Source of the DNA: Phoronis australis
Taxonomy: Eukaryota; Animalia; Phoronida
DNA length: 64,000 nt
Reading direction: 5' to 3'
Assembly (NCBI GenBank): GCA_002633005.1
Contig: NMRA01000474.1
Location: forward strand, 248,001 to 312,000
A program made the position numbers and the translations under genes. Positions 4,601 to 61,000 of this stretch are shown here, piece by piece. Within the stretch, counting starts at the first letter, position 1; every line of letters starts with the position of its first letter. The notes beneath the pieces are model-generated. The model did no database searches. It had not been told where the DNA came from and saw only the letters and a list, made by a program, of their open reading frames with translations.

Positions 4601-5127
4601 CCTAAAGGCTTCAGTTACACAAAGAGCAAAACATATTCATAATATTGACCTTTGAAGTCTTCATTAGATGAGCGAAAGTAAGGATGTATGGCTTGATCCT
4701 CTTCAAAATCAAACTGGCTACGATCATTGTTCTTGGTGTATTTCACGCTATCTGCTGTTAGACGTTCGAATACCCAATGAGGAACACGCTTTCTTCTGTC
4801 GTACGCCAGGACATGGCCGTCATAAGACAGCAGATTGTCAAGACTCGGGAAGCCGTATTTCATGATTTCGGCAGTATGGTTTACTGGCTCAGAAGATTTG
4901 TAGGTGTCTAATTCCATAGACTCAATATTCCGATTGTGTGAAATGACAGAGGCAGCGAACACAGTTGTTGAATTTTGAACAAAGTGAAAAAGATTGTTCA
5001 GCAAGGAGTTGTCACGTAAGACCAGTGTTTCTTGATCATTCCTGAACTGTTCATACTGGCGGCCGATCCAAGCGCTGGCCCCAGCAGACGTTGCACACAT
5101 AAGTGTTGCTGAAATCCGACGTAGCAT
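1617..5127 (-). CDS. ENDOG: Mitochondrial endonuclease G (DNA/RNA non-specific nuclease), 4 coding exons, about 324 aa
   Basis: Exons 5127-4650, 3587-3487, 2343-2231 and 1899-1617 join with GT-AG boundaries and phases 1,0,2, giving 975 nt. The protein has KYGFP, YDRRKRVPHWVFE, catalytic SGYDRGHLAAAANH, TFFLSNIAPQVGKGFNRHAWNELE, VYVCTGPLYLP and VAVPTHFFKV, plus an Arg-containing N-terminus resembling a mitochondrial presequence. Confidence 0.96.
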
Positions 5128-6670: not shown

Positions 6671-9600
6671 ATGGCGTCCACCAGCAGCGATAACCGGTGA
6701 GAGTGTTGTCTTTTAATCATGGTGCAAGTTTATGTGTTCAGAAACATTTTGGTGTTGTTTTTGTAGCTTTAGCATGCAAAGTGTCTGTTTATTACTTTAA
6801 GACCGTTGAAGCTTTAGACTAGAATAGCCCCCAGAACATTCGACTTCGTCAGCAAGCTATCTCATCTGACATCGTCATCAGCTGCCTTTCTGAACTGTTG
6901 AAGTAACGTCGGTGCCTCCATTTGGCCATTTTGGGGCATCTGCTTTCTGTCTGCCTTATCTGTAAACGACCTAGCTATGTTGAAGGATCTCTGAAGTGAC
7001 GTCTACTGTGTATATTTATCTTTTTTAAACCTGTTATAGTTGTTCTCGTTTTTGTTGATCTTATACACTAATACAGTAACATAATAATACTCTGAACTGG
7101 AGTATGGACATTTGAACCAAGAAGAATAGTGACGCAGCTGATTTGTGAATTATTTTGGAAGTTATATTCACAGGTAGCCTCAGCAGGCGTCTTTATACAG
7201 TGACCACCCTCTCTAGTTGGCCCCAACTTACTAGAGACGGTGAAACTCCTAGGCTGAAGCTGCGTATGCTGGAAGATTTTCGGCAAATTATGCCTTACAC
7301 TGATTAAAACATCAAAGTGTCATTGTTATAACTACCTTTTGTGCATTGAGGGTAACCTTTAAGGAGGCCACCGATGTCTAATTCCTTCCAACTCGAACAT
7401 ATACTCCCATAAACTTTTTCTTTGCTCAGTTGCCCAAATCAGGAACTGGCCAATTTTACCCTGCACGCACACCTATTTTTACCGTGCTTGCCAGGAGCGC
7501 ACGCAATGTTAAAAATGGCCAGTTTGGGCAACTAAATGAAGGACTGCTTGAAGAAAAAGTTCAATTACGGGAGTATTTGTTCAAGTTGAAAGATATCGAC
7601 GGCCTTCTAAGGTGTCCCTCTATGTCCAAAAGGTACTCATAACAACGTGACTTTGATGTTTTAATCAGTGTGAGGCATAATTTGCCAAAATGCCTCTGGC
7701 GTATGAAGCTAGCTGCTATTCTAGTTGGAGTTTCACCGTTTCTACTGCGGCCAGCTAGAGACGGTGGTCACTGTCTATCACAGCTACAAGCATCCTCAGC
7801 TTCTGCCAATACACTGTACTTAGTACTATATATAGTGTATTAGCGATGGCCAGAAGTCGAGGATGTCTGTGGTTGTAGAGAGCTGTAGCCAAGAGGCTCA
7901 GCTCTAATGAAATTCTACACTTTCAATGTATGGACTTCCAATCATGTTAGAGGGTTGGTTTACCGACTATGAAAGTTGAAATTGGGAAAATTTTGAATGA
8001 TTATAAACAAGGACAGTTGAAGATTACCAGATTAAGGAGTTAGTGCTAGCTCATTGTCATGAGAGTTAACAACACCAGCATTGCAGGAAGTGGTGCTGTT
8101 TAGATTGAAAAATTAAATGTTGTTTTTGTTTATAAGATTGCCAATAGTCAAAAAAAGACATTAAAAGTTGGTCAAAAATTATTATTTTATTAACTTTTGA
8201 ATACCTCATGGGTTAACACAACTAGTACGACCATTAAAGCTGTGTGTTGAAATCTCCTTCCAGAATGGTAGTGAGGCGGCCTGCTATGGTGAGTTGCCCA
8301 AGTCATCCGGACGCCAACCTGATTGAAGACTATCACGCCGGCGACCTCATTTGTCCAGAATGCGGACTAGTTGTTGGTGATAGGTGATGTCTTTTTGTTA
8401 TGAGATCAGTTTTCAGGAGAAGTTAATTAATTTTGTTGGAATTCCTCTTAGTTACGTAGTCAAAGTAAGGAATCTAAACAAAAAGTTGTAGCACTAAATT
8501 ATTTTGAAAATGAACCTTTGAGCTTTTCATGTAAAGTAGAGGTTTTGGTTTTTGACAGTCGAGATGTCGAGCTCAAAGACCTTAAAATATCGCAGACACT
8601 CTTTTGTAGCTAATAGACCAAACAGAATTTACTACCATGTTAGGAAAAAATATGATCCGTGGAAGTTACAGCTGTCTCCATGGAAAATTGTGATTTTTTC
8701 GAAAAAACATGATCGTTCGATAGGAATCGTTCCAGCACCACTTTTGTTCATGTTTCCCCGATTATCAAGGATCAAAAAATATAGGGTTTTACGTACTGAT
8801 AATCACTATTTCAAAAGATATTAAACAAAACGTGGCCCTTGGTAATGAAGATAGTGACCTTCATAGAATTATATTTTATTTGCAGGGTGATTGACGTAGG
8901 CTCAGAATGGAGAACATTCAGTAATGACAAGAATACCAAAGATGCATCACGTGTCGGTGGTCCGGAGGTGAGATCATCTTGTGCTTTGTGTTCATCAAAA
9001 CTTAATCTGATGTTTGTTAGTGAGGGAACATGTATCCCAGGCAACAAACACAGTGTGTTTTGTCAAACAATCCAATGTTTGGTTTAGACCACTTGCCATA
9101 AAGAACTGTCATTACCTAACTCTGATAACAAGTGGTTTCTGGGTTTCACCAGGACTTGGAATTTTCTTCTTTTAAGAGGATTTCCTCTTTTTTAGTTTCG
9201 ATTTCCTCTTTGATATTTGATTTCCAGTTTCTGCTTTTTTGTCCCTTTTATCATTGTTTTGACATTATTCACGCAAAAACATTTATTTCAGTTAAATTTA
9301 ACAACACAAAAAATATTTCTATCGCACAAGCCTATTTATTTGGAAAATTTTCCACTTCTTTCATCATTAGTCAGTCCAAGCTGCATGTCATACTGCTGAC
9401 TGTTGATTATTCCGTGAGACGATGCTTGGCGCGTAAAATTGTAAAGTCATGTCTTGAGCCAGAACAAAGGTCACTGGCCAGTTCTTTCCAAGTCTAGAAA
9501 TCACATTGCCTTTGACTAAGAAATGATAGACCAATTTCATGATGACCCAAGTCAAATAATAGGTTTTGTAATTAATGGCAGCTCTTTAGCTCTTTTAAAA

Positions 9601-12600
9601 GCCAATCAGTTTACAGATATCGCGTTTGTCTAAAAATAGATAACATATTATGTGCGTATGGGCTATGAAATAAATTTCAATGTACACTGAACTCAAAATT
9701 TAACTTTCAAGCTCACCACTGCATTGTCACGTGACGTTTGTGGCATACCACATGTAATATACTTAGTACACATTTGTTTATATTTCCTTCTAAAACATGT
9801 TGGAATATTTTATTACAAAACAGAGTTACAAGCTTTAACTCTTTTGCCATAATGCTTTTCGCAGATTGCACAACAATGTTCTCCTTCCGTGCATTCATAC
9901 TGGTTGCGGCATGATATATAAAATGTTCTCCTTCCGTGCATTCATACTCGGTGCTGCACGATATCTAAAATGTTCTGCTCCTTGTCTGGAAATCTTGAGC
10001 CATGTTTGAAAAGTTCTGAGTCATGTGTTAACATTTCGCGCCAGGTTTGAAAGCTTGATTTTTTCTGCTTACAAGACAAATGTGGTGCATAGCATTTATT
10101 CTGCTGCTGAAATGATAGTGGGGTGCTTGTCACGTGAAAATAATGCATAACAACTGATTTTGTGAATTAACAGAAAGGGAGGTAGACACAGAAGCGCGAA
10201 GCGCAATTTACACCATTTTCAAAATTTTGCTCAGGACGTACTGTGTTCAAACTCTTTAATTTCGCAACATGATTCGATGCAGATTGATTTGGCTTTGTTT
10301 GGTTTGTTGTAAAGATATATTCGTAACGTGTTCTCATGCTGTGTCTATTGCATGTTTCAGAACACATTACTGGAGGGTGGTGACCTCTCCACAATGATAG
10401 CCAGCGGACCAGGGTTTGAGAACAGAGACGAGGAGGGACGGACTATTTACAAGAACAGGCGGAATGTGAGTCGGAGTTGTACACTATGGCAGCAACTTTT
10501 TGACTTCGAAAGGGAAACCATCTGTTTTTGAGCAAGGGTTGTAATTTTCTTTCTTTTTTCATCATGTTCTTTCATTAATTTGACTTCTTTCTTGCAAAAA
10601 CACGCTTCTTGTAGGTATGTTTTACAAAACAAAAAATACTTCTATCACATAAGTCTATTTATTTGGGGAACCATGTCACCTGGAAAATTATTTTCCTCTT
10701 TTGTGTGATTGGTCATTGCAGGCCCTGTTTGAGGTTACCGTTACCAAGGATTCAAATCCCTGTTGGTCTTTATGGCATTGGGTACTGCTCCCCTGGCCCT
10801 GCTTAGCGATGGAAATGCTTACTTTAACGACCCTGCAAAAAACCCACATCTTGTTGTGCGTGCCTTCTTTTGAGTTGAGCAAGCACATTGACTATGACAG
10901 TCTGTGTTAAGGAAAAAGTCATTGTGTTTGCTAATCAGATCTGAATGCGCTCACAAGCAGATGCGAGCCTATCGCTGGGTCAGTGGTCACTTTATGATTT
11001 TTACAAGGGCAAGGGGAACACTAGTTTATTTCTGAAAGTGTAACCAGGGATAAAAAATATTATCTTTCCTCCACTCCTGGGGTTTCTTGTTTAAATAACA
11101 TTTTTACACCCTTACAATTCATGCACAAAGTTTGCGTCCCACAGTCAAAAGTGCACAGCCTGAGCTTACAAAGAGTGTGTCTTTTATCATCGTACATCCC
11201 AGCCTCGTAAATAGTGTGTCTATTATCAGTGTACAGCCCGGACTCAACTCACCTAGAGTATGTCTATTGTCAACGCACATCCCAGCCTCATAAATACTGT
11301 GTCTGTTACCAGTGCCTGGACTCAAAAAGAGTGTGTCTTTTATCGTTGCACATGTCAGCATCATAAATAGTGTGTCTATTGTGGGTGTGCACCCTGGACT
11401 CATAAAAGGGGTGTCTATTATCAATGAACGTGGCGGGCTTCCAAGTAGTACGAAACAGTTGGATTGTCGTGGCAAATCTTGTTTTGGTTCGATCTTGAAT
11501 TTGTTGAAAGAAATAATTCATGGAACAAGACAAGGCAATACTAACCGTTTGCTGTAACTTCATTTTGTCCAAATACACTGTCTTGTAAATAGCAGAATAG
11601 TGAGATATGTTCTAAAATACTGTTCATGGCTATGTATGTTATATATTTTTGTATGTTAATTACATGGAAAGTGCATGCCAAGGGGCAAATTAATTTCAGA
11701 ATATCGTTCCCCCATAAGAGAGAATAAGGAATTAACAGCAAGGAAAGTTAATAATTTGTCTCAATGATTTGTAATTTGAATTTTCCACTCAGAATAGTTA
11801 TTACTTAGCTGTTAACAGAATCGGCTCTCATGATAGGGAAATCTGTATTTTGCCGGATTATTTTCGTCATGTACTGTAGGTGGCGTACTTTTGTGGCCGC
11901 AGATGAAAGAAAATGTTGTCAGAAATTCAATTTCCTTTTTTAGATCAGCAGCACAGATAGAACTCTATTGAATGCATTCCGGGAGATCACCCAAATGGCT
12001 GACAGACTGAATTTACCAAAAATGATTGCAGTAAGTGTCGACATTTTGAGTGTATGACTTTACGCTGGTAGAAGAAGCAGCCGCTCACGTAATGAAAGTC
12101 ATGTGACTGATAGTGACAGGGGAGTTAACTGTCAAAAGAGATTAGACAGTTGGGAGAATTGACTAACAAGAGAGATTTCACAGTCGAGTAAATTGTCAAG
12201 AGAAATTTGCAATGAATGAATTTTTTGAAAATATACACTCGTACACATGATAGGCTAATATGCTAAATATACAGTCGTACACATGATAGGCTGATATGCA
12301 AAATATACACTCGTACACATGATAGGCTAATGTGCAAAATATACACTAGTACACATGACAGGCTAATATGCAAAATATTGGAAATTGCGCGTGATTGGTT
12401 AGCATTAAGTTTTTGTGTTTCAGTGCTGTTTGTGATTGGCTAGAATAATTGTACTTGACCGGCTCTTGTAATTGTGTGTGCTCTAATTGGATACGCGTAT
12501 AGGGTCTTATAAAATTGCATCACGTGACCTAGTTTTTGTGGGACTGAGGTATATACTGTATTCGTACACTGTGCTAGAGTCGGAATATCACAACCATGTA

Positions 12601-19100: not shown

Positions 19101-19205
19101 TCCCATTCATAAAAAAAGATTTCAGCGTTTTTTGTCAGTGGAGTTCAAGTTTATCTCGTGAACCGTTACAGGTACCTATGAAATGAGCAAAAATACACCT
19201 TTTAA

Positions 19206-20864
19206 AGGACAATGCCACCCGATTTAATTAGTCTTTTTTACCGTCTTAATCGGTCTATATCCACATTGCCTCTTATACGGTCGACCTCACCTTGCGAGAG
19301 GTGCCGCGTTAACCTGTGTGGAAGGTGAGAAACGACGCAGCGACGTCAGTGGTTCATTTGCAGAGTGAATGCCGCTATATTGCGGTGCATCGTTCCCGCT
19401 TGAAGTTGTCCGAACTATGAAGCTGCAAAGAGAGCGCCGGGTTTATCGTTTTTTCGACTTCCTCGAGAACCCGAAACGCTTAGGAAGTGGCTCGCGGTAG
19501 TGAAGAATGAAAGGTAAGCTGTTAATACCAATATGAGGCCGTGAAACATCTCCGTGTCTGTGGCCGGCATTTCGTCGACAGTGATTTCTCTGACGAATTC
19601 CGGCTTACCAAAGAACTATCCGTACGTTCCGTTGCCTGTGCATGTTCAAGGCGCCTGTCTAGTATTTCTTGATCAGTGTATTCCGGTTCGATTGAACTGA
19701 TAGTCTGTGAAACTTAACGATTCGACCCGTGAAGTCTTCGTCGGATGAGCTCTTGACTAAGTCGGGATTGGCGCCAGGCGAGTTGCCATGTAGACGCTTA
19801 TTATTCTGCGTTCTCTTTCAAAGTGAATTATTCTCATCCTAACCAATGCTTATATGGAACTGAAACAATTCAGTCTGTCTCATTAGATACAATTTGTAAT
19901 GCCTTGGACTGCTTGTGAGTGCAAATGTTTTGAGAAGCTAGCAATGAATAAACCACTGCGTTACCGGCTTTTGATGCCGGCAACAAAGGTAATTGACCGT
20001 GCACCGAGGCCGTGTGAGCGCATGCTAATTCAATGTTTTCTGAAAAGAAAGCGGTTGTGAAACAATACTCGATTTTATATGCTATGGTCAAATGTTAGGG
20101 TGATCTTTATTTTGAAAAACAAATACATTATTCAAATCATTGTTACTGCACAACCTTTGCCCTGACGGTCTGTGGAAAGGGAACCCGACTTCGTGGCCGG
20201 CCCCCGACAAGTAAGTAGACTTTCAGTTTCGTGGCCAATTCAAACAAGAATTATGTGCACATTATTTCTTTGGCTCTTTACTATAATCTTTTCGTGACTG
20301 AAGGTTTAGTGGCCAAGTCAAGCTGGTTTATGTTAGTGCCAGTCCCGGCGGCCGCGACGGGCCTGATCGGGTTCCGAGCCACTGGCCGGGATAACAAGCC
20401 TTTTGTGTGTTTAGAACTCAAAAAATCACAAGTATAAACAACACACATCTAAATTCTCCTGTCTGTATATTTCGAATTTATCTCCGAACAGACCCCAAAC
20501 TCCTTCTACGGACCTTAGTAAATTGGCCTGCCGAACTTTGAAGGTTACGGTGTGTCCAAATACCAGTAAATCCGTAACAACTAAATAAAACAACACGTTT
20601 TTATAAGAACTCGGTGTATTTTTAAGGGTTTTATATCGAAGTGTGATGATTTATTGGTGTTGAACGATGAATTCAAGCGATAAGCTGACACCAGTAACCC
20701 GTGTTGTGAACTGCTGAACAGACTGCGCGTGAAACCAATTACGTCATTGGATAATTTCAATACCTCCGTCTGCCGTCAGGTGTCAGGTAACGCATCCGTT
20801 ATCGAGTAGAACTACTCGATCTAAATTGATACAAAATAGGTTGTTTTTTGGGTGGCATTCTCCT
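19206..20864 (+). mobile_element. Non-autonomous Kolobok-like DNA transposon with frameshifted THAP domain, copy 1
   Basis: Bounded by TTAA|AGGACAATGCCACCC ... GGGTGGCATTCTCCT|TTAA. Positions about 19369-19590 encode MPLYC..(frameshift)..CPNY...SFFRLPREPETLRKWLAVV...LRVCGRHF, a C2CH THAP signature. TTAA duplication, purine-purine termini and THAP are Kolobok hallmarks. Confidence 0.8.
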
Positions 20865-21204
20865 TTAAAATATGAATGCCCCATCTCCTATATTCACCCG
20901 GTTACCCGTCAAAAGTCTGCAAGCATTCATGCGGAAATTGCTTAGTAATCCGTTGTGACAAATTCGTTGGTTTGTGATTTACTTTTTTATAGATAGAGTC
21001 ACAGATAGTTTTTGACAATTAGAAGCTAATCTTGTAAGAATTGATGACGTTTCAGTGAATTTAATGAAGTTGGAAAAACTTTATAGTCCGATCCCCGACG
21101 ATTTTTGCGTACCTAAAATAACTCTCAAATACATTGAAGAAATTCGGACTAGCAAATCGTAGACAGAAAAAAACGTTTAAAAATCCTTAAATAAATAAAA
21201 TTAA

Positions 21205-22321
21205 AGGAGCATGCCACCCAAAAAAAAACAACCTAATTTGTATCAATTTAGATCGAGTAGTTTTGGCCATAACGACACGTACGGTTGCGATACCTGACAC
21301 CTGACGGCAGACGGAAGTGTTGAAATTATCCAATGACGTCCTCGGTTTCACACGCAGTCTGTTCAGCAGTTCACAACACGGGTTACTGGTGTCAGCTTAT
21401 CGCTTGAAGTCATCGTTTAACACCAATATATCATCAAACTTCGATATAAAACCCTTAAAAATACACCGAGTTCTTATAAAAACGTGTTGTTTTATTTCGC
21501 TCTTACGGATTTATTGGTATTTGGACACACCGTAGCCTACAAAGTTCGGCAGGCTAATAAGGTCCGCAGCAGGAGTTTGGGGTCTGTTCGGAGATAATTT
21601 CGAAGTATTTTACGTGAGATACAGACAGGAGAACCTAGATCTGTGTTNCACTCACGAACACTCCAAAGGCATTACAAATTCCATCTAATGAGACAGACTT
21701 TGTTTCAGTTGGTTAGGGTGAGAATAATTCATTTTGAAACAGAACGCGCAGTAATAAACGCCAACATGGCAACTCGCAATCCCGACTTAGGACAAGCTAG
21801 AGCTCATCAGTCCCGACTTCGCAGGTGGATCGTTAAGTTTTACAGGCTATCAATTCGAACAGGAATACAGTGATGAAGAAATACTAGAGAGGCGCCGTGA
21901 ACAAGCTAAGACAACGGAACGTATGGAGTTATTTGGTAAGCCGGCATTCGTCAGGCACTGTTGACTGCAGGCCACAGACACGGAATTATTTTGCAACTTC
22001 ATACTTGCTATTTACAGCGTACATTTGATTCTTCACTACCATGAGCCACTTCCCACGCATTTTGGAGTCTCGAGGAATTAAAAAAAACGATATACCCGCT
22101 TTCCTCGCAGCTGCTTAAGTCGGACAAGCGGGAACGATGCACCGCAACGTAGCGCATTCACTCTGCATATGAACCACTGACGTCGCTAGCGTCTTTCTCA
22201 CCTTCCTCACAGGTTAACGCGACACCTCTTGGCAAGATAAGGCCGACCGTATATGAGGCGATGTGGATATAGACCGATTAAGATGGCAAAAAAGACTAAT
22301 TATATCGGATGGCATTCTCCT
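21205..22321 (-). mobile_element. Second, internally deleted copy of the same Kolobok-like THAP element, inverted
   Basis: Bounded by TTAA|AGGAGCATGCCACCC ... GGATGGCATTCTCCT|TTAA. It is a diverged reverse complement of copy 1 and lacks roughly the 19870-20420 segment. Confidence 0.8.
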
Positions 22322-22932
22322 TTAAAGTTTCCAGTAGTAGGCCTATATTGAGCAATGAATTTTTGTTCTTTAAAACTGAATTGATGGCTTCCACGTCATG
22401 ACTTTCGTACCGACGTTAAAAACATGATCTAACCATGCAGCAGGCCCGCGCAGAATCTCAGTGATCCTTGGAAACTGAATTTGAATTCCAGGCGTTCAGG
22501 AAGTGTGTACATTTTTGGGACATACTATACTTTTCCCCAGCCACCAGAAACAGGACTACCGGTCATGCGTCAACTAAACATTTTGGAACAGCCGCAAGGG
22601 ACTTTGGGGTCTAATCTTTTCAAAAAAAAACTTCTTCAAAGAATGACCATAATAAAATAAAGTTTTATCGAATCTGGGTCACAATAAAACGAATCTTCAC
22701 CTTAGAGCGGCCGAGTACGAGCTGCCTGTCTGAAGTGAATCATAGTTTAGCTGACCAGCAGTTAGCATTAGTTCATCGGAAATTTCGTATTTTCACACTG
22801 TTAGATCTCAGCTATAGCTACTTGAGGCAGCTCCATGCTACCGATCAGTGCACTGGTCCTAGGCCCATTCTTACTCTCTGTGTTGGTTCGCGGTTACTCA
22901 ACTCTTGACGCCTTCGCCCCCCGGGATTGTCT

Positions 22933-23554: not shown

Positions 23555-23708
23555 GGGTGAGGCGTGTATGTAGAGGTGAGGCGTGTATGTAGGGATGAGG
23601 CGTGCATGTAGGGGTGAAGCGTGCACGTAGGGGTGAAGCGTGCATGTAGGGGTGAGGCGTGTATGTAGGGGTGAGGCGTGTATGTAGAGGTGAGGCGTGT
23701 ATGCAGGC
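23555..23708. repeat. 20-bp minisatellite, about 7.5 copies
   Basis: (ggtgaggcgtgtatgtag(a/g))n. Confidence 0.9.
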
Positions 23709-24817: not shown

Positions 24818-25135
24818 TAAATCGGTAAATAAAACAACAAGAATGGATCAACTGAAATTTGAAATTTTCGGATGTAATAACTTCCTTTGTCAACAAAAAC
24901 ATAAATAACTTCTTAAAATATGTCGTTGAATTTTTTACGCAAAAATGTATCATTTTCATTACACCATATCTTATATGTCAATTGTCATTTTGTGTTTGAT
25001 TTTACTTTATTTCCATTCTTGTTGTTTTATTTACCGATTTATATTCTTCATTTCATGAAACAATAGTATCCTTGGGAGGATCTGGATCGCCTTATTTAGT
25101 TTCAGATATATTTTCTACGTTGTTTAGTACTTTAA
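24818..25135. mobile_element. MITE-like dispersed repeat with ~30-bp inverted repeats
   Basis: taaatcggtaaataaaacaacaagaatgga ... tccattcttgttgttttatttaccgattta. The reverse complement of about 25010-25130 recurs in the ankyrin-exon introns at about 49860-49990 and 50520-50650. Confidence 0.65.
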
Positions 25136-26754: not shown

Positions 26755-28336
26755 TGAAATAAGCGCCAGATAAACTAAACAATGAGTAGTAAGTTAAACG
26801 TGTTTAATTCGCAGTCGACAATAAAACCAGACGGAACCGGAAAAGGTCGAACCAAACACAGTCGTACGAATAACAATGCAATGGCGTAATTGCCTCTCCT
26901 GTAACAGAAAATGAGGCAAACTTACATTAAGAACGGGTAGTTGAAAACAAAAATAGTAAACACAGAGCTAATAAGATTCACAGTTACTATGGAGTTAACA
27001 CAGTACAAAGTAAAATCAGTCATAAAGCCAATCGTCCGTTTGCCAATGAGGTTTGGTGGCGCTGCCGTTGCGATCTTCTCTGGGCCTCTGAATGATCAGG
27101 AAAGATGGGGGGTTCAACAGCAGGCGTTGTCGTAGAACCATTCTGGGGGGATACATCAGGGGGAGGAACGACGGTGGATGGCATAGCTGGGGTGACAAGT
27201 GGGCCACGTGAAGGTGGTAAAGCATCGTTGTACCATGGAGCTGGATCGCAAGACGAAGGCAACGATGAAAGGGATACGGGAACAGCAGAAGACGGTGGAA
27301 ACTCGTTGTCGTCATCGTGGTCACAAGGGGACTCTCGTGACAAAGGAATTTGATAGAAAGCACACGTAAGATCGGTCTTGATGATGAGCTTCCATTGAGC
27401 AATCTTCCGGAGCACGGAATCTAAGTCAGGCATGAGAGATGGTTGGGACTTGGCGTACAGGCCGACGTCTGAAAATGCTGTAACTAAACGAAAACTTCCT
27501 TGAGGTTTCTTGACTAGAAACGAAGGATTAAGATATTCTACTGTGATACCAACATCCTCTGGACGGGCGAATACTTCCAGTAGCTCCAGCTCGTTGAATG
27601 TTTGTTACAATTCCAGGAGCTTTTCCTTGGAGTATTGGGGGAGGCAACCTTTACTCTGTGGAGGTTGCTTAGGACCCATGTTGACAATGGCCTCGAACGG
27701 GCCTGCGGCGCCATTGTACACGGGGTATTGCGGATCAAATACGTGAGCTAATTTGCGATGCAGGGCCTGGAACCTGTAACGATCTGCAGCATGCAAAATA
27801 TTATCGGGATCAACGGCAACAAAGCGATGGAGATCCAAGCTAGTTTTGGGGGATGAGGTACATTGGGTGGCTGTCGGGGATCCAGATGGAACCTCCGAAT
27901 GAGTGAACACAGCGTGCACCTGGCAAAACTGATCATCTCATCGCAAAAATCATGGTTCGTCGGTGTTGTTGAGCAAGCGAATCTTGCCATTAGTAGGAGC
28001 AAGAATGGTGGGTTTTGGCCATAACTGGGAAACACCCGTGGAGCGGAGGCTAACGCTGTCGGAGCGAGGTTTGATGGCAAGATGTTCTTCAGGATCGGTG
28101 AAATCGGACGGTGCCTCCAACTCACCACGCCATATGGCAGTCATGTGAGGGGGAGCACGTAATACTTGGGACAGCCGTGATGTGGGTCGTGGGCATTGGT
28201 TTACGGGTTGGCCATGCGTGTATGTAGATCCGTCAGCCAACGTCATAACTGGGGTTGTTTCTAATACGTCTACGTCAAGGGACTTGATAACAAGACCGTC
28301 AAAAATGAAGGAATGTTTGTTACGCCAATCGAACAT
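26755..28336 (-). mobile_element. Degenerate Ty3/Gypsy LTR retrotransposon pol fragment with possible PPT and 3' LTR remnant
   Basis: Minus-strand frames give [49 protein letters not shown] and [31 protein letters not shown] (RT N-terminal motifs), with stops and frameshifts. These are fused to a Pro-rich RRSQRQR pol tail. A purine tract AGGAGAGG at 26893-26900 is followed by about 140 bp ending TTTCA. Confidence 0.8.
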
Positions 28337-29442
28337 CCTAGTTTACTATGCAATAGGCCTAACCAATCAGAAAAACAAGTCGAAGGTCATTGAGTGCAAA
28401 CTAAAATTTTGAGCTAGAGACTTCAAAATTACAACTGTTTAGTAAATGTGATTGAGTTTGAATTCTAAATTATGAGGTCATTTGGTGCACCCATGGGGTC
28501 ATTAGGTGCATTTTTCTTCTGAAAGTTTGACCAATTCATTCATGTTGTATTCTAAAGTGCTTAAAGTAAAACATCTGTGATTCTTAACATTAACCACACT
28601 TTTAATCCAGCTTACAATTATTCCTCATCCGTTCTCACAATGCACCGAAAGAGGTCAATTAGTGGAAAGGTCATCAAAATATTAACATGTTATTTTTCTT
28701 ACAGTTTTAGAGAATTCCTTTTCAAATTGGTTAACGGGTTGCTGTCAGTAACTTCCCATAACATATCGTTTAATACACGCGCGCAGAGTCCATTATTGTC
28801 ACGCCGTGACAATAATCTTTCTAGTTTTCCTCCTGTAAGGCACATTCCAACACTTAGAAAAATAAGAAAATAAATTAACGTAACAGTGTGTCTCAGTTGT
28901 TCAACCTAAATTTTCTTAGAAAGAAAATAACTGTAATTTTGAAATAAGCCCTTCAAATTCCCTTCCCAGAAGTTCCCACAAGTCCAAATTAGTTCTGCGT
29001 CACACTAGCCAGTAATTATGCAACCAAAATGTCAGCCTTGTTTACGCCACCCTTTTAGTTGATCTATAGCTGAAATTTTTGAACAGCAAAATGTTTACCA
29101 ACTTTCTTCTTTGAATTAGCCAGTTAACAAAACATCTATATATAAATAGAAGGAAACAGAAATTGTCTTAAATTCTAAATGATTGATATTTAGCTATTTC
29201 ATTACAGTTGGCAGGATATATACATGTACATGTAACGTGTTACATCGATAGTGAACCATAACTTGCAGTAGCGCTCGTACAGACAACAGTGCAAGTATGC
29301 GTGTTGTCAGAATAAGCCATTAATTTTCTAATGACACTTGTAACTGTATGGCGTGGATGGGAGCGAAGTAGACGCGAGTGCAACCTCTCTCCGCTCAACC
29401 GTGCAGTTTCGCATCCGCCACAGCCCGTTTCGTCAGAAACTG

Positions 29443-39765: not shown

Positions 39766-42700
39766 TCAACGTGGCCTTCCATTAGGGAAGATTTCGGTGC
39801 ACAATTGGCTATCACTGACGTTGATGTCGTCGTATATGGCCTCCATGCGGATTCCTTGTTCAACGGAACGAACGGCAATTTCATCAAAAGGCACAGTGTG
39901 GATGGGTGGCACATTCGGAAAAATAAATGTTTGCATTACGGCCACGCTGGCTTCATGTTTCTCGTCAGGCACGAAACCGGGACATCCGGAACTACCTTTA
40001 CCAAAGTTTGAACTGGTTTTGTAAAGTGCTCGGCGACCATCACCGAACTTCGGGAATACGTCAAACCCAAATCTAGCTTGAGACCATTGCTTTAATTCGT
40101 CATGCTGAAATAGACAAATGTCAAATATCTCTCCTAGATAATGAAGGAAAATTCTCTGAAAATCAATAAGACAATCAGAGGAAGCAATAGGTAGAAACAA
40201 AGACACTACCTTTGCTATGAACACCAAATCCTCTAGACTTGACATAAAGCTGAAGCCATGTATGACTGATTGTCAAAATGCAGAGCTAATCTTCAATTTG
40301 CGAAACATTATCTGTGTCTTTGTGACCCAGGGTTGCTCTATTGAAATTAGTTCAAGCTGAAACTGCAGGTATGAAAGGGATTGAAATTATAAAACAAACT
40401 ATTGTTCTGTGTAAATTGAGAGTCTGGTGAGGAATTCAATTGTTGATGGCATATCTTGGTCGCAATAGGCCTACCGTTCTGCGAAAGTCTCTTGGCTCCA
40501 TTTGCACAACACTGCAGCTGACATCAGCAACTTTGTTTTTCCCGTCAGGGTGACCAGCAAAGTGAAGTTGTGTTTCTTTGTTAAGCTTCTTAAACCTAGT
40601 AAGAGGAGGTGGTAGCGAATCCAACTTCTTGCAGCCGCTTACTGAGAGAGGAAGATCTGCTTGTAGGTCCAATTTTAAAACGGCCATGTCCAGATCATCG
40701 TTAGAGTACACTAGTGACCCCACACAGCTGCCAGCGGCTGGCCCAAGTCCCAGCAACGATGGTTTGTCGTAATAAAAGAGCACTGCACTGTTTCTGACTG
40801 CAACGAATAAGGTGACACGTGTACTTAAGTACTTTGTAACATGTAATGCTAACATTAACTAACTTGTGAAACATTTGAAAGTAATTTTGGTTTCAGATAA
40901 CAAGTTGAGTGGTTTTAAAAGTTAATTTTGAATGTTTGCTATTTTGGCGATTGATTATGGGACACTTCTTCAAAGTTCACAACGACGTCGTGTGCCAATA
41001 AACAACAAAGACGATTTTAGGAGGGGGGGGGGGGCAGGGGNNNNNNNNNNNNNNNNNNNNNNNNNNNNNNNNNNNNNNNNNNNNNNNNNNNNNNNNNNNN
41101 NNNNNNNNNNNNNNNNNNNNNNNNNNNNNNNNNNNNNNNNNNNNNNNNNNNNNNNNNNNNNNNNNNNNNNNNNNNNNNNNNNNNNNNNNNNNNNNNNNNN
41201 NNNNNNNNNNNNNNNNNNNNNNNNNNNNNNNNNNNNNNNNNNNNNNNNNNNNNNNNNNNNNNNNNNNNNNNNNNNNNNNNNNNNNNNNNNNNNNNNNNNN
41301 NNNNNNNNNNNNNNNNNNNNNNNNNNNNNNNNNNNNNNNNNNNNNNNNNNNNNNNNNNNNNNNNNNNNNNNNNNNNNNNNNNNNNNNNNNNNNNNNNNNN
41401 NNNNNNNNNNNNNNNNNNNNNNNNNNNNNNNNNNNNNNNNNNNNNNNNNNNNNNNNNNNNNNNNNNNNNNNNNNNNNNNNNNNNNNNNNNNNNNNNNNNN
41501 NNNNNNNNNNNNNNNNNNNNNNNNNNNNNNNNNNNNNNNNNNNNNNNNNNNNNNNNNNNNNNNNNNNNNNNNNNNNNNNNNNNNNNNNNNNNNNNNNNNN
41601 NNNNNNNNNNNNNNNNNNNNNNNNNNNNNNNNNNNNNNNNNNNNNNNNNNNNNNNNNNNNNNNNNNNNNNNNNNNNNNNNNNNNNNNNNNNNNNNNNNNN
41701 NNNNNNNNNNNNNNNNNNGGGGGGAAAGAAACTGGCCAATAGTGACGCAATATTTCATGGTGACGAAAGCCGACGCAGAGATAGCACCACAGCCTCATCA
41801 ACAGAAAAAACATAGAATGCCAATCCGCCATAATTGTCTAAACTTCACATATATTAAGCAAAACAACATACCAAAGCGACTATTTAAACCTGGAAGATAT
41901 ATTTTTCACCAAACAGTGTTTAACAGAAAGTGCGGGATTAGTGTTTTGGTGCAGGTTTCCTGTCCATTCCCGGGGTCCCTGGTTTAAATGCCAGAGTTCG
42001 AGTTTTTTCGGGTTGTATAGCCGTTTTGAAGGCACCTGTTTAATACCGAGTTACTGTCTTGACGGAACATCATGTTATTGTTATTAAATGAAATAAGACG
42101 GTCTCTATCACGGCCATACATATGAAAATAACCCGCAGTGACAAGTAATATCCACGAGCCTGATTTGAGGCAATCACGAAGTGTCAGTTATTCTAGACCA
42201 GCCTTAGATGGGATCAATTTCGTAAATGTTAAAGGTGACAAAAAGTTGTTTGTTACAGAAATAGCGAGTTTGTTGCGACGTTAAGGAACAGACGATTTCA
42301 CCTTTTGTCTTGAAAATATAATGACTGAGTAGGGTGTTCTTGTTTCATATCAAAAACAATAAAACATTTATTGATAATTTGAAGAACATGCAAAGTTTTT
42401 CAGAAACAGTAACAGCATGTTCAGGGAAAGCATTTAAACTTTCTTTGGGAATTTATCCGCGTTTTAGTCACGTCAAGCAGGTAATGTATTAAAGGTAGTG
42501 AGTTCGTAAAGTTTGCTTCTGCTCTTACGAAATTCCCGGCATTTTCGTACTATATCAAGCACGTGTTTAACTTAAACTAGGTTCCTAGACTTAAAATAGT
42601 AGTAGGTTTGACAAAGCGTTATTCAACCAACAGTTCACCAATAATGGTGCACGTGACACTTACGATCATCGCCCAGTTGTTCAGCAACGTGCTTATTGGT

Positions 42701-45700
42701 CATGACGTAGTCAGGGCCAACACGGAAACCTGAACCTGTGCCGGTTTGTCCAACAATCAGAGCTACTGATGAAAAGGCTGTTGACAAAGATGTGAGGAAA
42801 TGCGCCGACATCGTCTCTTTGTTCCAATCAAACGCCAGACCGAAACTACACTGGGTTGGCTCTTTTCTGGGACTTTGTACAGGAAAGTAGTCTGAAAGAA
42901 AAGAATTGTCAAATACCCTTTTCCAGTATCATCACTGACCTCTTCAGTTACACCAAAGTGATGTGCATGTCTCCGTTATATTGTGTCACAGGTGTAAATG
43001 TTAAAACCATCGAAACTTGTATTTAAGCTCAGGGAAATGTGCTACATCAAAGTCTTGCCTTCCCAAGTGGGCTTGCTTTACCATGTGAGACAAAAGCGAG
43101 TCAGGAAGTGGCGAGGAGATGATGTATTTGAAACCAATTTAAAAACGCTTTGCCATAAACAGACATCCAAAATCTTGACGAATAAACTGTAAAAAATACG
43201 TGGTGATCAAGTTGGATCCTGTTTTAGTGGCAGGGAACTGTACTTTGAATAGTGTAATTTAGCCTGTTTTTTGTTCGCCGACGACAATTTTACAGTGGAG
43301 CAGCCACGATTTAGAAACCACTGTGGCCTAGATTTAAAAACAAATGCGGTTCTTTTGCAATGCTGGGAAACTCCGGGTGTATTGAGATTGACTGGGAATG
43401 TGTAAGATGCAAATAAATCGACGTGGCGGTAGTTCTTACAGATTACATTGAGCTCCATTTATCTAACCTGTTGTAAGTAATTAGGTGATTGAGAACAGAG
43501 TGAGAAATAATATAATGCATTAGACAAAACGAGCTTTACATGTATTTGGCATGTCGTTGGCGGATTTATTTATCAAACCTGAACTACATGAAGGCATTGG
43601 TAAGCACCGAGTCAGAGCACGTTACGTGCATCTCATAAGTATTGTTTGACCAATGGGCATTCTGCATAGGCAGATTTAGAGGGGGAAAGGGGCAGGGGGC
43701 CCGCCCCCTTGGCTGACGCAGAAAAAATAAAACAGCAAGAGCGTGACGAAATATTGAGTTCATTAAATAACGTGGTAATTAACCTGGGGCTGAAACAACA
43801 TTTTGATGTGTTGAGGGTTCCCCGTTTTTTAGTCCCCCAATTTGATTCTTAGCAGAACCTCCGCTTACCCGAAAGTTTGAGCCCACCCACCCCTGGTTGC
43901 GCGCATGCAATCGTGCTTTGCGCGGTTGCCCCAGACAACATGTTGATATACCAGATCCGCCACTGTTCTGATATGTACAATGAAGCTACATTCACTACAA
44001 CACCATGTATCTGAACTCGATAGACACTCAGTCTTATACAGCTGAATGTTTAGACCTAGAACAGTGAGCAATACCATATTAGAATGCAGCCGGTGAACAA
44101 GCAAAATTGATTCATGTAGCAGTGTTTACCAGTGACACAATATCCCGCTAGATGTAAGTGGTATCACATATTGTATCAACTTATTCAATACACACTAACT
44201 GAATGTATGAAATCAACATCTCATTTAGAGCATTAGGTGAATAGTACCGGCAAAACTATGTGTATGAATCACACCGATAACAATTCATAAATAATCTTAC
44301 ATTCCTACGTGGCCAATAAAAGTCAAATTTGAAGATGATTGAAATTTTCTCTCAGTTAATGATTGTTCTGCTACTAAAGGAAAATGTTATCGCAAAAAAC
44401 GTAGTTCCAAAATAAAAGCGGTATGTTATCACCATAAAGTTAGGTTCTACTATTGCAGGTCAAGAGTTTAAAGCCAGTATTTACGATTATACTTCATATA
44501 CCTGATGGTCTGACGTCAACACCCAGAATTCCCAGTTCATTTTTGTCTCCTTGGTGTGCTTGTATATTTATATCTACATCCCCTTTGGGCACTGTTGCCC
44601 CGGAGGACTCGAAGTAATAAGCAAGATATCTTCCAAGGCTAAAGTGCGGGTCAGCACTGGACCTGTTTTTGGCTTCAGCACCCTCAGCAGAACTCGCACG
44701 TTGGTTTTCCTGTCTTTGCTTCATTTGAATCTATACCCAAGTCAAAAACGACACAACCGCATTAACTAATTTATTTTATAACTGATGATGCTACTCTCTG
44801 CTCTGAACATCTATGTAATTCCTGAGTTAGCAATGGATAAAATGTAAATAAAAAACATGGTATTATTAAAAAATTATTAACAAACATGGTCACTTGACGA
44901 GTATCGTTTTCATCAGGTAAATAATGATTATTTAAAGAGTATTCAATGGTTAACAACACACATCCGTTTGAACCTAATTCTCAAGACAAAACTGACAAGT
45001 TATACTGTACCTCAAGGAACCCCTTTAAGGTTTTAATATTTTCGGCGGCGGTCTTGTCAAAAAACACGCTACATTCTCTTCCACAAACATCATAAGCTGT
45101 TTCGCCTTCCTGAAAATTAACAAAATAGAGGTAAAGAATTAAAAAGTACATATAATTTTTCAGAAAACACGCAAAATGAGCATTTTTTTGATCTCGTGGT
45201 TCTTGGATTCCGGCATGTTTCCGTCTGTATTTGTTCAGGGTCAAAATTTTAACCAAGTTTCAACGTGTGCCTCTTCTTTTCTCAAGAGTTACAGTTAATC
45301 TGGGTATAGGTCTTGACTTGGTGTGGTCGAATAGTGACACTCAGTGTCAGTTGTTTTACACCTGCGTCTGCGTTGCCTCTGTAAATGTTGGAAGAAGTGT
45401 CTCATTTCAAAGAACATTATACACGTGTTAGATGGGGTTCCAGTCGGGAGGTGTACTCCATAGGATTAGCAAACTGAGGTATGAACTTGTTAGATGGGGT
45501 TCCAGTAGAGAGGTGTACTCCATGGGATTAGCAAACTGAGGTATGAACGTGTTAGATGGGGTTCCAGTCGGGAGGTGTACTCCATAGGATTAGCAAACTG
45601 AGGTATGAACTTGCTGACAACTTGTCCAGGACATCTTTCACTGTAGTCTACTGAGATGACATCAAAAGGCAGCATAAACTGACTGGGGTGCGGATGTCAC

Positions 45701-48700: not shown

Positions 48701-51700
48701 CGTGTTCTGGGAAGGTACTTGCATTGAAGAAGTGACTCTATGTAACTCCAGTAAAGAGGTAGATCAGTTTTAATGAGATATTTATTATGAGTGAACAATT
48801 CCTCGAAATCAATATTCATTTAAAACACATTTATTGCAGCATTAACTAAACTTGGAGTACAACACTCTTGAGATACCTTGTTTACGGCAGTCACGTCGCA
48901 GCTGCCATTATGGACCAGCAGTTCCACGACTGCTGCCTGTCCTGTCTGGGAAGCTAGATGTACGGGTGTGTTTCCATCCTACAGTAAACGAACAAATATG
49001 ATAGAATGCTGGTCAGCATCATACATAGCAAAGTGGGTGCGTCAACAGAGAGTCACGCTTAACACCTTTCAGAACTTCGCCTTCAGTTGCATACTTACTG
49101 TATGAAGTGGGTGACTCAACAGAGCACGACTACAACTGACATTTAAACTCAGACAAAAATGAGCGCAATTTCCTAAATGCTGATCTGTTGTAGTCACGCG
49201 ACTGAAAAGATGATTTTAAATATCACAATTTGATGTTATATATTACAACAGAGCCACGATCATTTAGTGAGTGCTATGGTAATGCAAGTAAAGAACAAGT
49301 GCTCAATGTACAACTCCAGGTGAAGTGAAAACTGTTTCTAATAACATAATGTCACGAGCACGTCACGTCACGTGCGCGTCACTTCACGTGCCGTGAATTC
49401 AACGTTTACAAACAAAATTACAATTTGTGATTATTTAATTAAAACACCCAATAATTCAACCTCGTCACGTATTGTGTGTTCATCAACCTGTGTGTCGTTA
49501 ATTACCTGAGTACGGACATCCACTGTAGCGTTGTGTTCCACAAGACACTTCACTATCTGTGTATAACCACACCCTGCTGCACAGTGCAGCGGTGTCCGGC
49601 CCACCTATGTAATATATAATGGAGATGTGTGAACGAACGATCAACGTTTAGAGCAAATTAACAAACACGGGGGAAAGTGAACTTGTAAGGTGACATAAAT
49701 GAAACATTACTGACCTCTCTAAGACGCAACAATACGTGTAATGATTTCAACAGGGAAATGTTGAGTTTAAGAACAAAACAACAGAGCGTGTTCAGTGTTC
49801 CGTCTCGTTACACGCTGATAACACACAGCAAGTAATTGTGCGCTGTAAAGTGTTGGACAATCAAAATAACGTAGAAAATATATCTGAAACTAAATGAGGC
49901 GATCCAGATCGTCTGAAGGAAATTATTGTTTGACGAAATGTAGAATATATATAGGTAAATAAAACAACAATAATGAATCAACTGAAATGTTCGGATGCAG
50001 CTTTGACAGTTCTCTGTTGGAAAGCAGACGACATTTATTTTGACATTGTTTAAAGACATAAAATTGTGAAAAATATCAACAAAATTTGTTCTTCAATAGT
50101 TTTAATCATCTCTTGTGTAAACAACTAATTCAACCAAACAACCTGTGTGTCATTAATTACCTGAGTACGGACATCCACTGTAGCGTTGTGTTCCACAAGA
50201 CACTTCACTGTCTGTGTATGACCACACCGTGCTGCCCAGTGCAGCGGTGTCCAGCCCCTCTATGTAATATATAATGGAGATGTGTGAATGGACGATCAAC
50301 GTTTAGAGCAAACTAACATACACGGGGGAAAGTGAACTTGTAAGGTGACATAAATGACACATTACTGACCTCTCTAAGACGCTACAATACTTGTAATGAT
50401 TTCAACAGGGAAATGTTGAGTTTAAGAGCAAAACAACAGAGCCTGTTCTGTGTTCCCTGTCTCGTTACAGGCCGGTAACACACAGCAAGTAATTGTGCGC
50501 TGTAAAGTGTTGGACAATCAAAATAACGTAGAAAATAAATCTGAAACTAAATGAGGCGATCCAGATCGACTGAAGAAAACTATTGTTTGACGAAATGTAG
50601 AATATATATAGGTAAATAAAACAACAATAATGGATCAACTGAAATGTTCAGGTGCAGCTTTGGCAGTTCTCTGTTGGAAAGCAGACGATATTTATTTTGA
50701 CATTGTTTAAAGACATAAAATTGTGAAAAATATCAACAAAATTTGTTCTTCAATAGTTTTAATCATCTCTTGTGTAAACAACTAGTTCAACTAAACAACC
50801 TGTGTGTCATTAATTACCTGATCACGGATATCCACTGTAGCGTTGTGTTCCACAAGACACTTCACTATCTGTGTATGACCACTCCATGCTGCACTGTGCA
50901 GCGGTGTGAAGCCCCACACCTATGTAATATATAATGGAGACGTGTGAATGGACGATCAACGTTTAGAGCAAACTAACATACACGGGGCAAAGTAAACTTG
51001 TAAGGTGACATAAATGAAACATTACTGACCCCTCTAAGACGCTACAATACTTGTAATGATCACTCAAGTTTTACAGGTGATTTTAAAACCTTGAAGTAAG
51101 AACAGAACATGGTGTAGAAGACAACTGCCAGAAATTACTGAGCGCCGCCATAACTTCACAGTGACCCCTCCATGTTGTGTTCATACACCGGTTTAATGGC
51201 TTCCTGTTCAATATAAAGTTGTAATGTTGAATGGACGCTTACCATTAAGAATAGAAAAATATCAACGTTAAGTCGCCAAATATATTGTTGACACAATTCA
51301 AACCTCACTGTTTCTTAAGATGCATGTACCGGGTACAGATTGAAAATACATGTCGAAATCTTGAGAAATAAAAAGTGTATATACACACAACATGTTTAGT
51401 TAAACTTCAGATAGTTTACAGCTTTGTAACAAAGATATCACTGTCTTAATTATAAAATCGTCTCAAGTAGTTTCTATTACCCCGTCTTGCTTGTTGACGA
51501 TAGCGCCTGCTTCACACAAAACACGCGCCACCTCTGTATGTCCCAGCCCTGCTGCACTGTGTAGTGTTGTCCAGCCCTGCAGAAACAATGAACAAGTTAT
51601 AGCAAACTTCACAATCATTAACTTCACCGTGAATCTTAATTACTCATCATGGAAACGTTGAAATAACACATTTGCACACAAAATTACTAAATCTACTCTC

Positions 51701-58064: not shown

Positions 58065-61000
58065 CCCTTTCATCAAATCAGTTGGTCTATATCATGTCAT
58101 GTACTTGAAACTGGTTAATTTTGGATGGGTTTTTCAATATCTTCAAAATTGGTTGCATTCTGATTTTTTCGTATTTGCTCGACCTATGTTAATATGCTTG
58201 TGCAATGATATTATATCGTGGTTGCAGAATGGTTTGAGACAACTGTTGTGTCATTGCTTTACCAGAGTGATAATAAAATCTTACTTAAATGACAGACAGA
58301 GCATCTACTATGCTGAAGAATGGGATACCGTAGCAGGAGGTCGCGTCACCTAGGGGGAACTCTTATAACGAAACTGCATTTTAGGAATGAACCAGTTGTG
58401 CATGAAAGAAATTGGAAATTAATACGCCCAGATCTTGAATGCAGCAAACCGGAACACTATTATCTACGACAACAAAAGTGATTGCACCGACTATGTAACG
58501 AATAGAATAAGTAAAATAACATAAAAGATGTGCCTCGATCCGCCGAACACTCAGTTATTCAACGAAATTCCACTAACAGGAACCTATCCTACTATTTGAA
58601 ACTTGGATTATGGTACCCAATTAGCAAACAATTGAGAATCACTGCTGTGCTGTAACACTTCAAAATTCTTTCTTTAAATTGGGCATTGAATGAAATGTAC
58701 AATTGCATCACTTTCTATAAATTGCAATAAATTACCAACTTCGCCTTGACTTGATGAATGAGAAGAGTACCGTCTCTCACCTGTACGAAACTGTTCACGG
58801 GATACGATAATAATATGGAAAATGGGTATAATGTTAGATAATCAATCCGCGTTTGACACAGTTTCACAAGACCCCTTCTTGTACAAAGTTTTCTCTTATC
58901 CAATATCGGACACTCTGCACACACTCCGCACTTTATACTTGTAAATTAACTCTATCCATCCAATCGGGTAGTAGGACTAGACAGTGTGTTTTCAAAACCC
59001 TCACTCCCCGTCTTTGTTTACGTAGGGGTATCGAAAGCTGATGTCCTATTTCTACTCTTCATCAATCATGACAGACATGAGCTCCAAAACCATCCATGAC
59101 ATAATCAATGGTAAAACGTCTGATACAGCCGAATTTTATACAAATCTCAAAAACATCCCAAAAGCCTTTCTTTCCAACTACAGTTGAAACTTGGTTCCAC
59201 TCAGGGCTCGTAATAAGCACATGGAAGCTTCAAGGCTGAGATAAAGTGTTGATCTTACATTTTCTAGATGCCTCCATTTCAAACTAACACAATCTTTATC
59301 TGAATCCGCATGGTGAAATTATTCCCCAAAACATTTGTAAAGAAATCTAGTCATGATAGTTGATGATGAAATGTCATTTGAACCACAGTGTCAAATCCGT
59401 GTGCAAAAAAATCAAATTCTAATCAACCTACTGAAATTCGTTCATGCAAGTTTCAAATCGTTTGGTACCTACAAACGATTTGAACATTTTGACTATGGTG
59501 AGATAATCCACCAAGTCGTGTAGATAGTGCGAGACCTTTGCTTGAGCTACACAAAGTATCATAAAAAGCTTGCAATAACCAATGCTGGTGTCATGAAAGG
59601 GTCTAACACAGTAAGTGGTCCAAAATGTCATTGTGTTGAAAGGTATTAGCAGCTCAAGTTCTTAACAAAGTAAAGAATGTATTACGAAATACAAAAGTCA
59701 AAAACATCACTCGATCTAGGTACAGTTCAAGAACGCTAGTACATGCTATGCCCTTCGCGAGATTACGCCGTGTATTTTAAACAAGACCATGTGAATTTGG
59801 ACAGTTTTTCCAACCCGCAAAACAGCTACACTGAGAACTCTACTAGGGTTTCTCTTGTCGCACATTTTTCTTATTTCCACCATCTTACAGTCGAGCAACT
59901 AGTAAATCCACAATTACCAAGGCATAGATGCAGGTCACATCCTCTCATAAAAATGATATGCCGTAATTAAAATTTCATTTTCACAAATGCTTTTGCGAAA
60001 AGAATAAAATTATTCTTCCTACAGTCGTATACCGCCGTACAATAACAAAGGAAATCTGTCAACAGATTTAGGTCAAGATTATTGCTAAACTCTGAAAAAT
60101 TCAGACACACTTTTCAAAATATGTCTTCCCGGTGCGCCTGCGGATCTGTCCAAATTGGTCTGTTTCTAATGCTTTCGTAGATCGTTTGCGTGATCCTTGT
60201 TGCGGATCCTGGAGACGGTCGACGATATAACAGATAAAATTAATAGTATTCCACGGCAGATTGGTAAATACATCTTGTTAGTAACTGATTCTCATGACTA
60301 GCCCAATGGCGTCTATTAAGTGCTACTTAGTCAATTTCTCTATAGTATGTAACCTGTCTTATAATTGCTGTTCGTAGGACTCGGTCATGATTTCATTGTA
60401 TTTTTCTCACCGACATACGTGTGCTGTTAAGGCAAGTTAAGAAAAAACGTCTGTTTTATATCTAAACTTCCGTAGCTATACATGTACTTGTATGTGAACA
60501 TTTTGTTATTACTGTTTTGTATTGTTACCACGATTTTGACATGTCGCTTTGGTTAACAGTTTACAGTGTTCATACATGTATATACTATTCAACATAAAAT
60601 TAGGAAGGCAATGCCAATCGTGATGAAGTTCTTAAGACAATGGATGTGTAGAATTGTTTTTAACAAGGTGCATTTCAAGTCAATGATGATCAGACAAGTG
60701 TTCATGTGTAAATACTCACCGACCGACCCAGCGCTTGGTCCACATCCCAACCACGGTTTACATACTCCAGTAGAGTAGAACAGTCACCTTTTTTGGCGGC
60801 TGTTCTAACCTGAAAATAATAACAAATAAATTTTAAATCGAATGGTGTACATTCATTACCATTACGAACTCAATTTTACAAAAAAGTGCTCCTTAGATGA
60901 TATGAACATTGAGGGACTAGGGTCGGGGTTGTTCCTGGGTCTTGATAATGCAGACCATATGAAATACTCTTCGCAAATTTTGGCTCTTGTTCATATTAAA

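Follow-up and report, generated by a model that had tools for sequence, protein, structure and literature searches.

A multi-copy ankyrin exon family with a hypervariable binding face in Phoronis australis, and its likely link to a predicted trypsin-like protease

Three tandem ankyrin exons of the phoronid Phoronis australis are members of a multi-copy, expressed ankyrin family, in which the codons of the binding face are far more variable than the silent sites. It is very probable that diversifying selection acts on this face. The locus is likely to be a gene that combines ankyrin repeats with a protease and belongs to a diversifying family, and the exons that are predicted to encode the protease lie downstream of the ankyrin exons on the same strand. 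The window, i.e., the whole stretch of 64,000 nucleotides that was analyzed, is intron-rich eukaryotic DNA with a GC content of ~38%; its features are listed in Table 1.

Table 1. Features of the window (positions are those of the window)
Feature	Position	Strand	Remarks
Exon N, candidate N-terminal capping ankyrin-like repeat, 30 aa, phase 0	60720-60809	-	AG..GT, open; cap-like by eye only; no Pfam match
Exon D, divergent ankyrin repeat, 32 aa	51481-51576	-	Pfam Ank, 29.3 bits
Tandem array, 2.4 units of 655-657 bp	49484-51060	.	Units 91-94% identical
Exon C, hypervariable ankyrin cassette, 34 aa, one extra codon	50818-50919	-	Pfam Ank, 39.9 bits; family reads
Exon B, hypervariable ankyrin cassette, 33 aa	50161-50259	-	Pfam Ank, 43.4 bits
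Exon A, hypervariable ankyrin cassette, 33 aa	49506-49604	-	Pfam Ank, 38.7 bits; RNA depth ~330-845 from family members
125-bp dispersed repeat in array introns	49864-49988, 50521-50645		Inverted copy at 24999-25125
Exon E, divergent ankyrin repeat, 34 aa	48877-48978	-	Pfam Ank, 36.9 bits; RNA reads cover the exon
Candidate intronic polyadenylation site after exon E	48802-48835	-	AATAAA at 48835-48830, with a cluster of read ends at 48802
Exon F, candidate C-terminal capping repeat, 33 aa, phase 0	45011-45109	-	Open; no Pfam match
Exon G, linker	44502-44730	-	G-H joint in RNA reads
Exon H, predicted trypsin-like protease start, candidate catalytic His (TNKH)	42664-42891	-	Trypsin_2, 16.3 bits (E 0.016), below cut-off
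Assembly gap, 678 bases	41041-41718		Within the H-I intron
Exon I, predicted protease middle, candidate catalytic Asp (DLDMA)	40475-40797	-	Trypsin_2, 12.9 bits (E 0.19), below cut-off
Exon J, predicted protease C-terminal part, candidate catalytic Ser (GSSG), stop	39766-40155	-	Open, phase 0; no Pfam match
Spliced endonuclease G gene	1617-5142	-	Pfam Endonuclease_NS; EndoG structures matched, best CG8862, which we take to be a fly entry
Nested, degenerate inverted repeat, 3.1 kb	19201-22326		Arms 82-98% complementary; foldback-like
Broken frames	27020-28342	-	Two frames scanned, neither with a Pfam match at E 0.1; by their motifs, presumably an LTR-retrotransposon pol remnant
Short tandem array, 62 bp	45426-45613
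Short tandem array, 19 bp	23555-23707
Short tandem array, 36 bp	12228-12378
Short tandem array, 39-44 bp	11156-11380

Structure, assembly and splicing of the ankyrin array

An earlier note, made from the sequence of the window alone, had described three tandem units of ~655 bp, each with one ankyrin exon. The translations of the three exons given there were reproduced exactly; the unit count has to be corrected, because the array contains 2.4 units and exon C shares only a 265-bp core with the other two. This core, which is common to A, B, and C, consists of 141 nucleotides of upstream intron, the exon, and 22 nucleotides of downstream intron. Each of the three exons is in phase 0 and is bounded by AG..GT on the minus strand. 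Exons A-E score above the cut-off of the Pfam Ank profile (PF00023; 21.1 bits) and thus count as ankyrin repeats, N and F are without a match, and a six-frame ankyrin profile scan of the window revealed no ankyrin exon beyond those modelled. The introns of the array also contain a dispersed repeat that has an inverted copy 25 kb off and stands out by its very high DNA depth; it is probably a small transposon.

Over the exons, the first mates of RNA reads are almost all on the plus strand, which indicates minus-strand RNA, as in most stranded libraries. Joints that go back 99 nucleotides over exon A were found in 15, 16, and 103 reads of the three RNA runs (two main rows), indicating that one cassette is spliced to the next. 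In addition, 81 reads of RNA run X8 join an E-like exon (48876) to another ankyrin-type exon; the six-frame profile found no counterpart of the latter in the window, so family members differ in layout.

It should be noted that an array of this kind could be an assembly artefact of stacked haplotypes, and misassembly was one of the grounds on which the earlier note would have given up its reading. The A-B-C order is not spanned by any read or contig listed, and the best DNA run contained 35% of the sampled words. Conversely, the copies differ at 24 of 556 intron positions (4.3%), about five times the divergence seen where DNA contigs overlap single-copy introns of the window (23/2925, ~0.8%). 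The latter value comes from six of the eight contig pieces listed; the two others, with 57 and 70 differences, were taken as repeats or paralogues and left out. Moreover, there are RNA reads that pass from one copy to its neighbour, with tandem exon-exon splices, and three variants are more than two haplotypes can supply. We therefore judge misassembled haplotypes to be highly improbable.

Variation in three copies and across the family

The evidence for selection comes from count-based tests. Exons A and B differ at seven nucleotides, and all seven differences are nonsynonymous (~74 nonsynonymous and 25 synonymous sites); our recount agrees with that of the earlier note, and this pair taken alone is within chance (p = 0.13 for all differences being nonsynonymous; p = 0.06 for the exon compared to the paired introns). 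For A, B, and C together, parsimony gives 15 changes at 14 sites, in addition to the extra codon of C, and no silent change is needed, as had been claimed (15 nonsynonymous versus 0 synonymous, p = 0.015, or 0.006 with transition bias allowed for). When adjacent double changes are merged, leaving 12 events, the absence of silent events has p = 0.016-0.034. Pairwise path-averaging of A and C yields 0.67 silent steps in one multi-hit codon, which vanish with B as the intermediate. The nonsynonymous rate is 0.20, compared to 0.074 in the shared intron flanks (2.7-fold; p = 0.005, or 0.037 by events); thus, the exons have diverged beyond the neutral intron level.

The positions of the changes were compared to those randomised in designed ankyrin libraries. 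According to passages of PMC4308713, the ANK-N5C library randomises positions 2, 3, 5, 10, 13, and 33, in the beta-turn and helix 1. Nine of the 15 changes fall within these six of 33 codons (p = 0.0004), and the remaining 27 codons carry six changes, where the intron rate predicts ~4.4; purifying selection on the framework is therefore not evident from the three copies by themselves. If the classic DARPin set, as we take it to be composed, is used instead, the count is 8/15 (p = 0.002); position 14 is also varied in classic DARPins. The placement of variation at the binding face, proposed in the earlier note, consequently applies to the nine changes, whereas the other six lie outside the library-randomised positions. 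Pairs of the three exons share 25-27 of 33 residues, i.e., 76-82% protein identity.

Variation across the family was studied using RNA runs X6, X7, and X8, which carry the same species label and of which ~18-19% each was read, and DNA run X1. With exon C as the reference and 80% likeness required, 306, 259, and 967 RNA reads and 69 DNA contigs were collected. There were at least 40 variant rows at a frequency of at least 5%, and 36 of them were used; four rows over codons 1-2 were left out, where the extra codon of C spoils the alignment. In this comparison the read counts are expression-weighted, paralogues and alleles are pooled, and degeneracy is defined on the codons of C.

Among the variants listed, ankyrin positions 1, 2, 5, 10, 13, and 14 are multi-allelic, and all four letters occur in family reads at the first base of codons 5 and 14. 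Mean heterozygosity among these variants is 0.37 at the 11 zero-fold sites of DARPin-type positions, 0.022 at the 49 zero-fold sites of the framework, and 0.015 at the 15 fourfold sites, two of which vary. In the worst case, with 10 further variant rows that are all silent and at 9%, fourfold heterozygosity would be 0.125. Heterozygosity above 0.3 was found at 7/11 DARPin-type zero-fold sites versus 0/15 fourfold sites (p = 0.0005); for all zero-fold sites pooled, the comparison is not significant (11/64 versus 0/15, p = 0.08). Fourfold sites 1-3 bases away from hypervariable codons (positions 4, 6, 11, 12, and 15) are invariant among the variants listed. Further combinations at positions 5/10/13/14, read by hand, include W/W/V/E, V/Y/E/E, and V/Y/V/E.

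The variants are genomic because DNA contigs carry the same alternative letters (for example, 31 contigs of X1 have another base at 50883), and RNA editing is ruled out as their source on the same ground. The summed depth of DNA contigs is ~1,100-7,400 on the exon, compared to 40-90 in single-copy introns; this depth is not itself a copy number, and it points to many copies. The family majority differs from exon C at position 19 (50867, ~74% Thr) and at position 32 (50829, ~98% Val), so some residues of the window are minority or private states; the private base of C at 50829 was seen in 6/221, 4/182, and 16/735 reads. Reads matching exon C at 99% or more number 1, 3, and 20 in the three RNA runs, which is thin support for this exact gene.

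Could the same pattern arise with no positive selection, from young duplicates under purifying selection on the framework, combined with hotspots of mutation or with tracts acquired by conversion from divergent ankyrin exons? The non-significant A versus B comparison and the whole-exon count of zero-fold versus fourfold sites (p = 0.08) are in line with this explanation, as are three changes that are adjacent double substitutions and the CpG context of 3/14 variable sites. However, purifying selection cannot raise free sites above the silent rate, no variant is listed at fourfold sites beside the hypervariable codons while all four bases occur at the first position of codons 5 and 14, and the excess persists when counted by events (p = 0.0001-0.0008 versus the intron rate). 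An origin free of positive selection is therefore improbable. Diversifying selection on the binding face, as suggested in the earlier note, is supported by the three copies and more strongly by the family-wide reads, and the overall pattern fits concerted evolution combined with diversifying selection.

Gene model and the predicted protease

Eleven exons, from 60809 to 39766 on the minus strand, with canonical AG/GT boundaries, form a model of 618 codons with no internal stop. Their order is N, D, C, B, A, E, and F (seven ankyrin-like exons), then the linker G, and then H-I-J. Each ankyrin repeat is encoded by one phase-0 exon in tandem, an arrangement of the Ectocarpus type, which allows copies to be added or removed without a shift of the frame. 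A search for the start exon gave no more than one weak candidate, which ends at 62033. The 618-residue model, which lacks the first exon, has no signal and no membrane helix (maximum hydropathy 1.4). A NACHT or NB-ARC domain has no Pfam match and no room in the 11 exons of the model, whose first exon or exons lie outside it. The earlier reading of the locus was right about the ankyrin cassettes and missed the downstream protease exons, which are the candidate effector.

Judging by the shared phase and by related transcripts, the ankyrin exons likely splice onto the protease exons in this gene. In these related transcripts, an F-like exon is spliced to G in 101 reads of X8, the G-H joint occurs in 4, 1, and 38 reads of X6, X7, and X8, respectively, and H is spliced to an I-like exon in 103 reads of X8. 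Among the joints listed, from a mapping that left out N, D, I, and J, there was none between A and E or between E and F. The gap in the H-I intron does not have to contain an exon since related transcripts splice H straight to I.

Read ends cluster 28 nucleotides past the AATAAA that follows exon E (7/20, 5/16, and 15/55 molecules in the three RNA runs), and read-through past exon E adds 18 codons before a stop. An ankyrin-only transcript thus probably exists, from this gene or a paralogue. A different reading of the locus, with diversifying selection retained, is that the cassettes mainly serve as ankyrin-only binders or as arms of other effectors, F-J being separate or rarely joined. The read ends in all three runs, the X8 joint from the E-like exon to another ankyrin exon, and the length of the E-F intron (3.8 kb) are in accord with it. 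So is the DNA depth, which is far higher on the ankyrin exons than on exon H (~165-275); given this excess, many of the cassettes may be parts of genes that have other effectors or none. On the other hand, F is in phase with E and has a canonical acceptor and an ankyrin-like beginning, and we regard this reading as unlikely compared to a joined ankyrin-protease gene.

From their sequence, exons H-I-J are predicted to encode a trypsin-like (PA clan, Trypsin_2) serine protease domain. The His, Asp, and Ser motifs occur in the trypsin order in one open frame, at model positions 373, 418, and 545. Single-exon Trypsin_2 scans of H and I stayed below the cut-off of 27.6 bits. The His motif of exon H gave a weak alignment with SplE and other serine proteases (E 0.27-0.7). 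The Atlas neighbours of exon I are largely of the trypsin type (top score 0.91) and those of exon J are largely trypsin-like clusters (<0.9, low recognition); both come from one source and serve as leads only. The single-sequence fold of exon J has a pLDDT of 35.

Other searches with these short queries were weak negatives: none of the 36 and 44 candidates for exons J and H was a homologue, and PDB sequence searches returned no match for exon I and one chance match for exon J. The frame of exon B retrieved four generic ankyrin proteins among five candidates. A search of 1.84 billion representatives with exon I gave a single match, a repeat protein, which was rejected as unrelated, and a Pfam match of exon H to Ntox25 (E 0.0006, below the cut-off) was treated as chance. 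FAM111 proteins were not matched in sequence searches with the short queries H, I, and J; the order of the motifs and the C-terminal helix of the protease part may resemble those of FAM111.

Comparison with known systems and a possible mechanism

Passages of PMC4986451 describe fungal NLRs with near-identical ankyrin repeats that evolve in concert and are under positive selection in the inner helix and the beta-hairpin; there, high internal conservation is defined as >85% identity over 100 residues, and such repeats are rare in animals (0.8%). The Phoronis locus resembles these genes in positive selection on the concave face, found here by counts, in a pattern that fits concerted evolution, and in the likely combination of a repeat arm with an enzymatic effector. 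It differs in having no NACHT or NB-ARC domain, in N-terminal repeats with one exon each, in an effector that is a predicted C-terminal trypsin-like protease, in the identity of its copies, which at 76-82% is below the 85% threshold, and in its animal host. With no NTPase in the 11-exon model, the locus is not an NLR.

One-repeat exons are also described, in passages of PMC3341825 and PMC11378527, for brown-algal ROCO (LRR-ROC-COR) and NB-ARC-TPR genes, which are candidate immune receptors. As far as those passages go, the likeness includes one repeat per phase-0 exon, tandem cassettes, and diversifying selection on ligand-facing residues; the differences are ankyrin instead of LRR or TPR, a protease instead of a GTPase or NB-ARC, and a different kingdom.

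On the protease side, FAM111A, a Trypsin_2 protease, is reported to be antiviral (PMC9798293 and PMC10469034), and soft coral and lancelet FAM111 members without ubiquitin-like domains are mentioned in passages of PMC9798293. Like FAM111A/B as described there, the present model carries His, Asp, and Ser in a C-terminal domain that is predicted to be Trypsin_2-like, and this domain is preceded by an N-terminal region with a putative targeting role. The model has an ankyrin arm, in contrast to the PIP box (mammals) and two ubiquitin-like domains (vertebrates) of FAM111 in those passages, and its triad spacing is 45/127 versus 54/102-106. Invertebrate FAM111 members are likewise devoid of the PIP box and the ubiquitin-like domains. 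The ankyrin arm resembles DARPins and ANK-N5C, as described in passages of PMC9611651 and PMC4308713, in its internal repeats between two candidate caps, its fixed framework, and its variation at positions 2, 3, 5, 10, and 13. It differs in being natural and evolved, in having no variant listed at position 33, and in varying at positions 1 and 19.

In this gene, the cassettes likely form a variable arm for recognition, attached to a predicted intracellular trypsin-like protease. The near-identical intron-exon cores would undergo unequal crossing-over or gene conversion, which would homogenise and reshuffle the cassettes, and selection would retain new binding-face surfaces. The seven-repeat arm would bind a changing, probably foreign, protein; binding would recruit or switch on the protease, provided that the enzyme is active and cytosolic, and the protease would then cleave either a protein of the pathogen or a switch of the host. 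Taken as a whole, we consider this mechanism somewhat probable. The ankyrin-protease enzyme would probably have an immune role. In passages of PMC8195603, ankyrin sensors belong to immune-type expansions of animals and trypsin effectors occur in bacteria; an ankyrin-trypsin fusion is absent from these passages.

The recognized partner could instead be self or kin, as in allorecognition, gamete recognition, or a conflict between a selfish element and its suppressor. Diversifying selection itself does not name its cause, and fungal genes with the same repeat regime act in allorecognition (in passages of PMC4986451). The model, however, has neither a signal nor a membrane helix in its 618 residues, which lack the first exon, and trypsin-like domains are recurrent effectors against invaders, with bacterial examples in passages of PMC8195603; a conflict with self or kin is therefore the less expected cause, and we think it unlikely. 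A bolder version of the immune-sensor mechanism may be put forward tentatively. The locus would be part of a natural DARPin library, whose dozens of interchangeable ankyrin cassettes would recombine in the germ line and perhaps also through splicing. Wired directly to a FAM111-like protease, they would make up an NTPase-free innate immune sensor-effector class, tuned by ankyrin-only decoy transcripts.

Invertebrates have no antibodies, and the way in which they achieve diverse recognition inside the cell is an open question. Repeat arms that are both hypervariable and homogenised are already documented in fungal NLRs and brown algae; we found no description of an ankyrin-trypsin sensor in an animal in the open full-text literature, and supplementary domain-architecture tables could list such a fusion. 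Much of the variation of the Phoronis cassettes falls at positions that protein engineers randomise. If the mechanism is true, an expressed animal family of ankyrin exons that feeds a protease directly would add a class of receptor to those already known.
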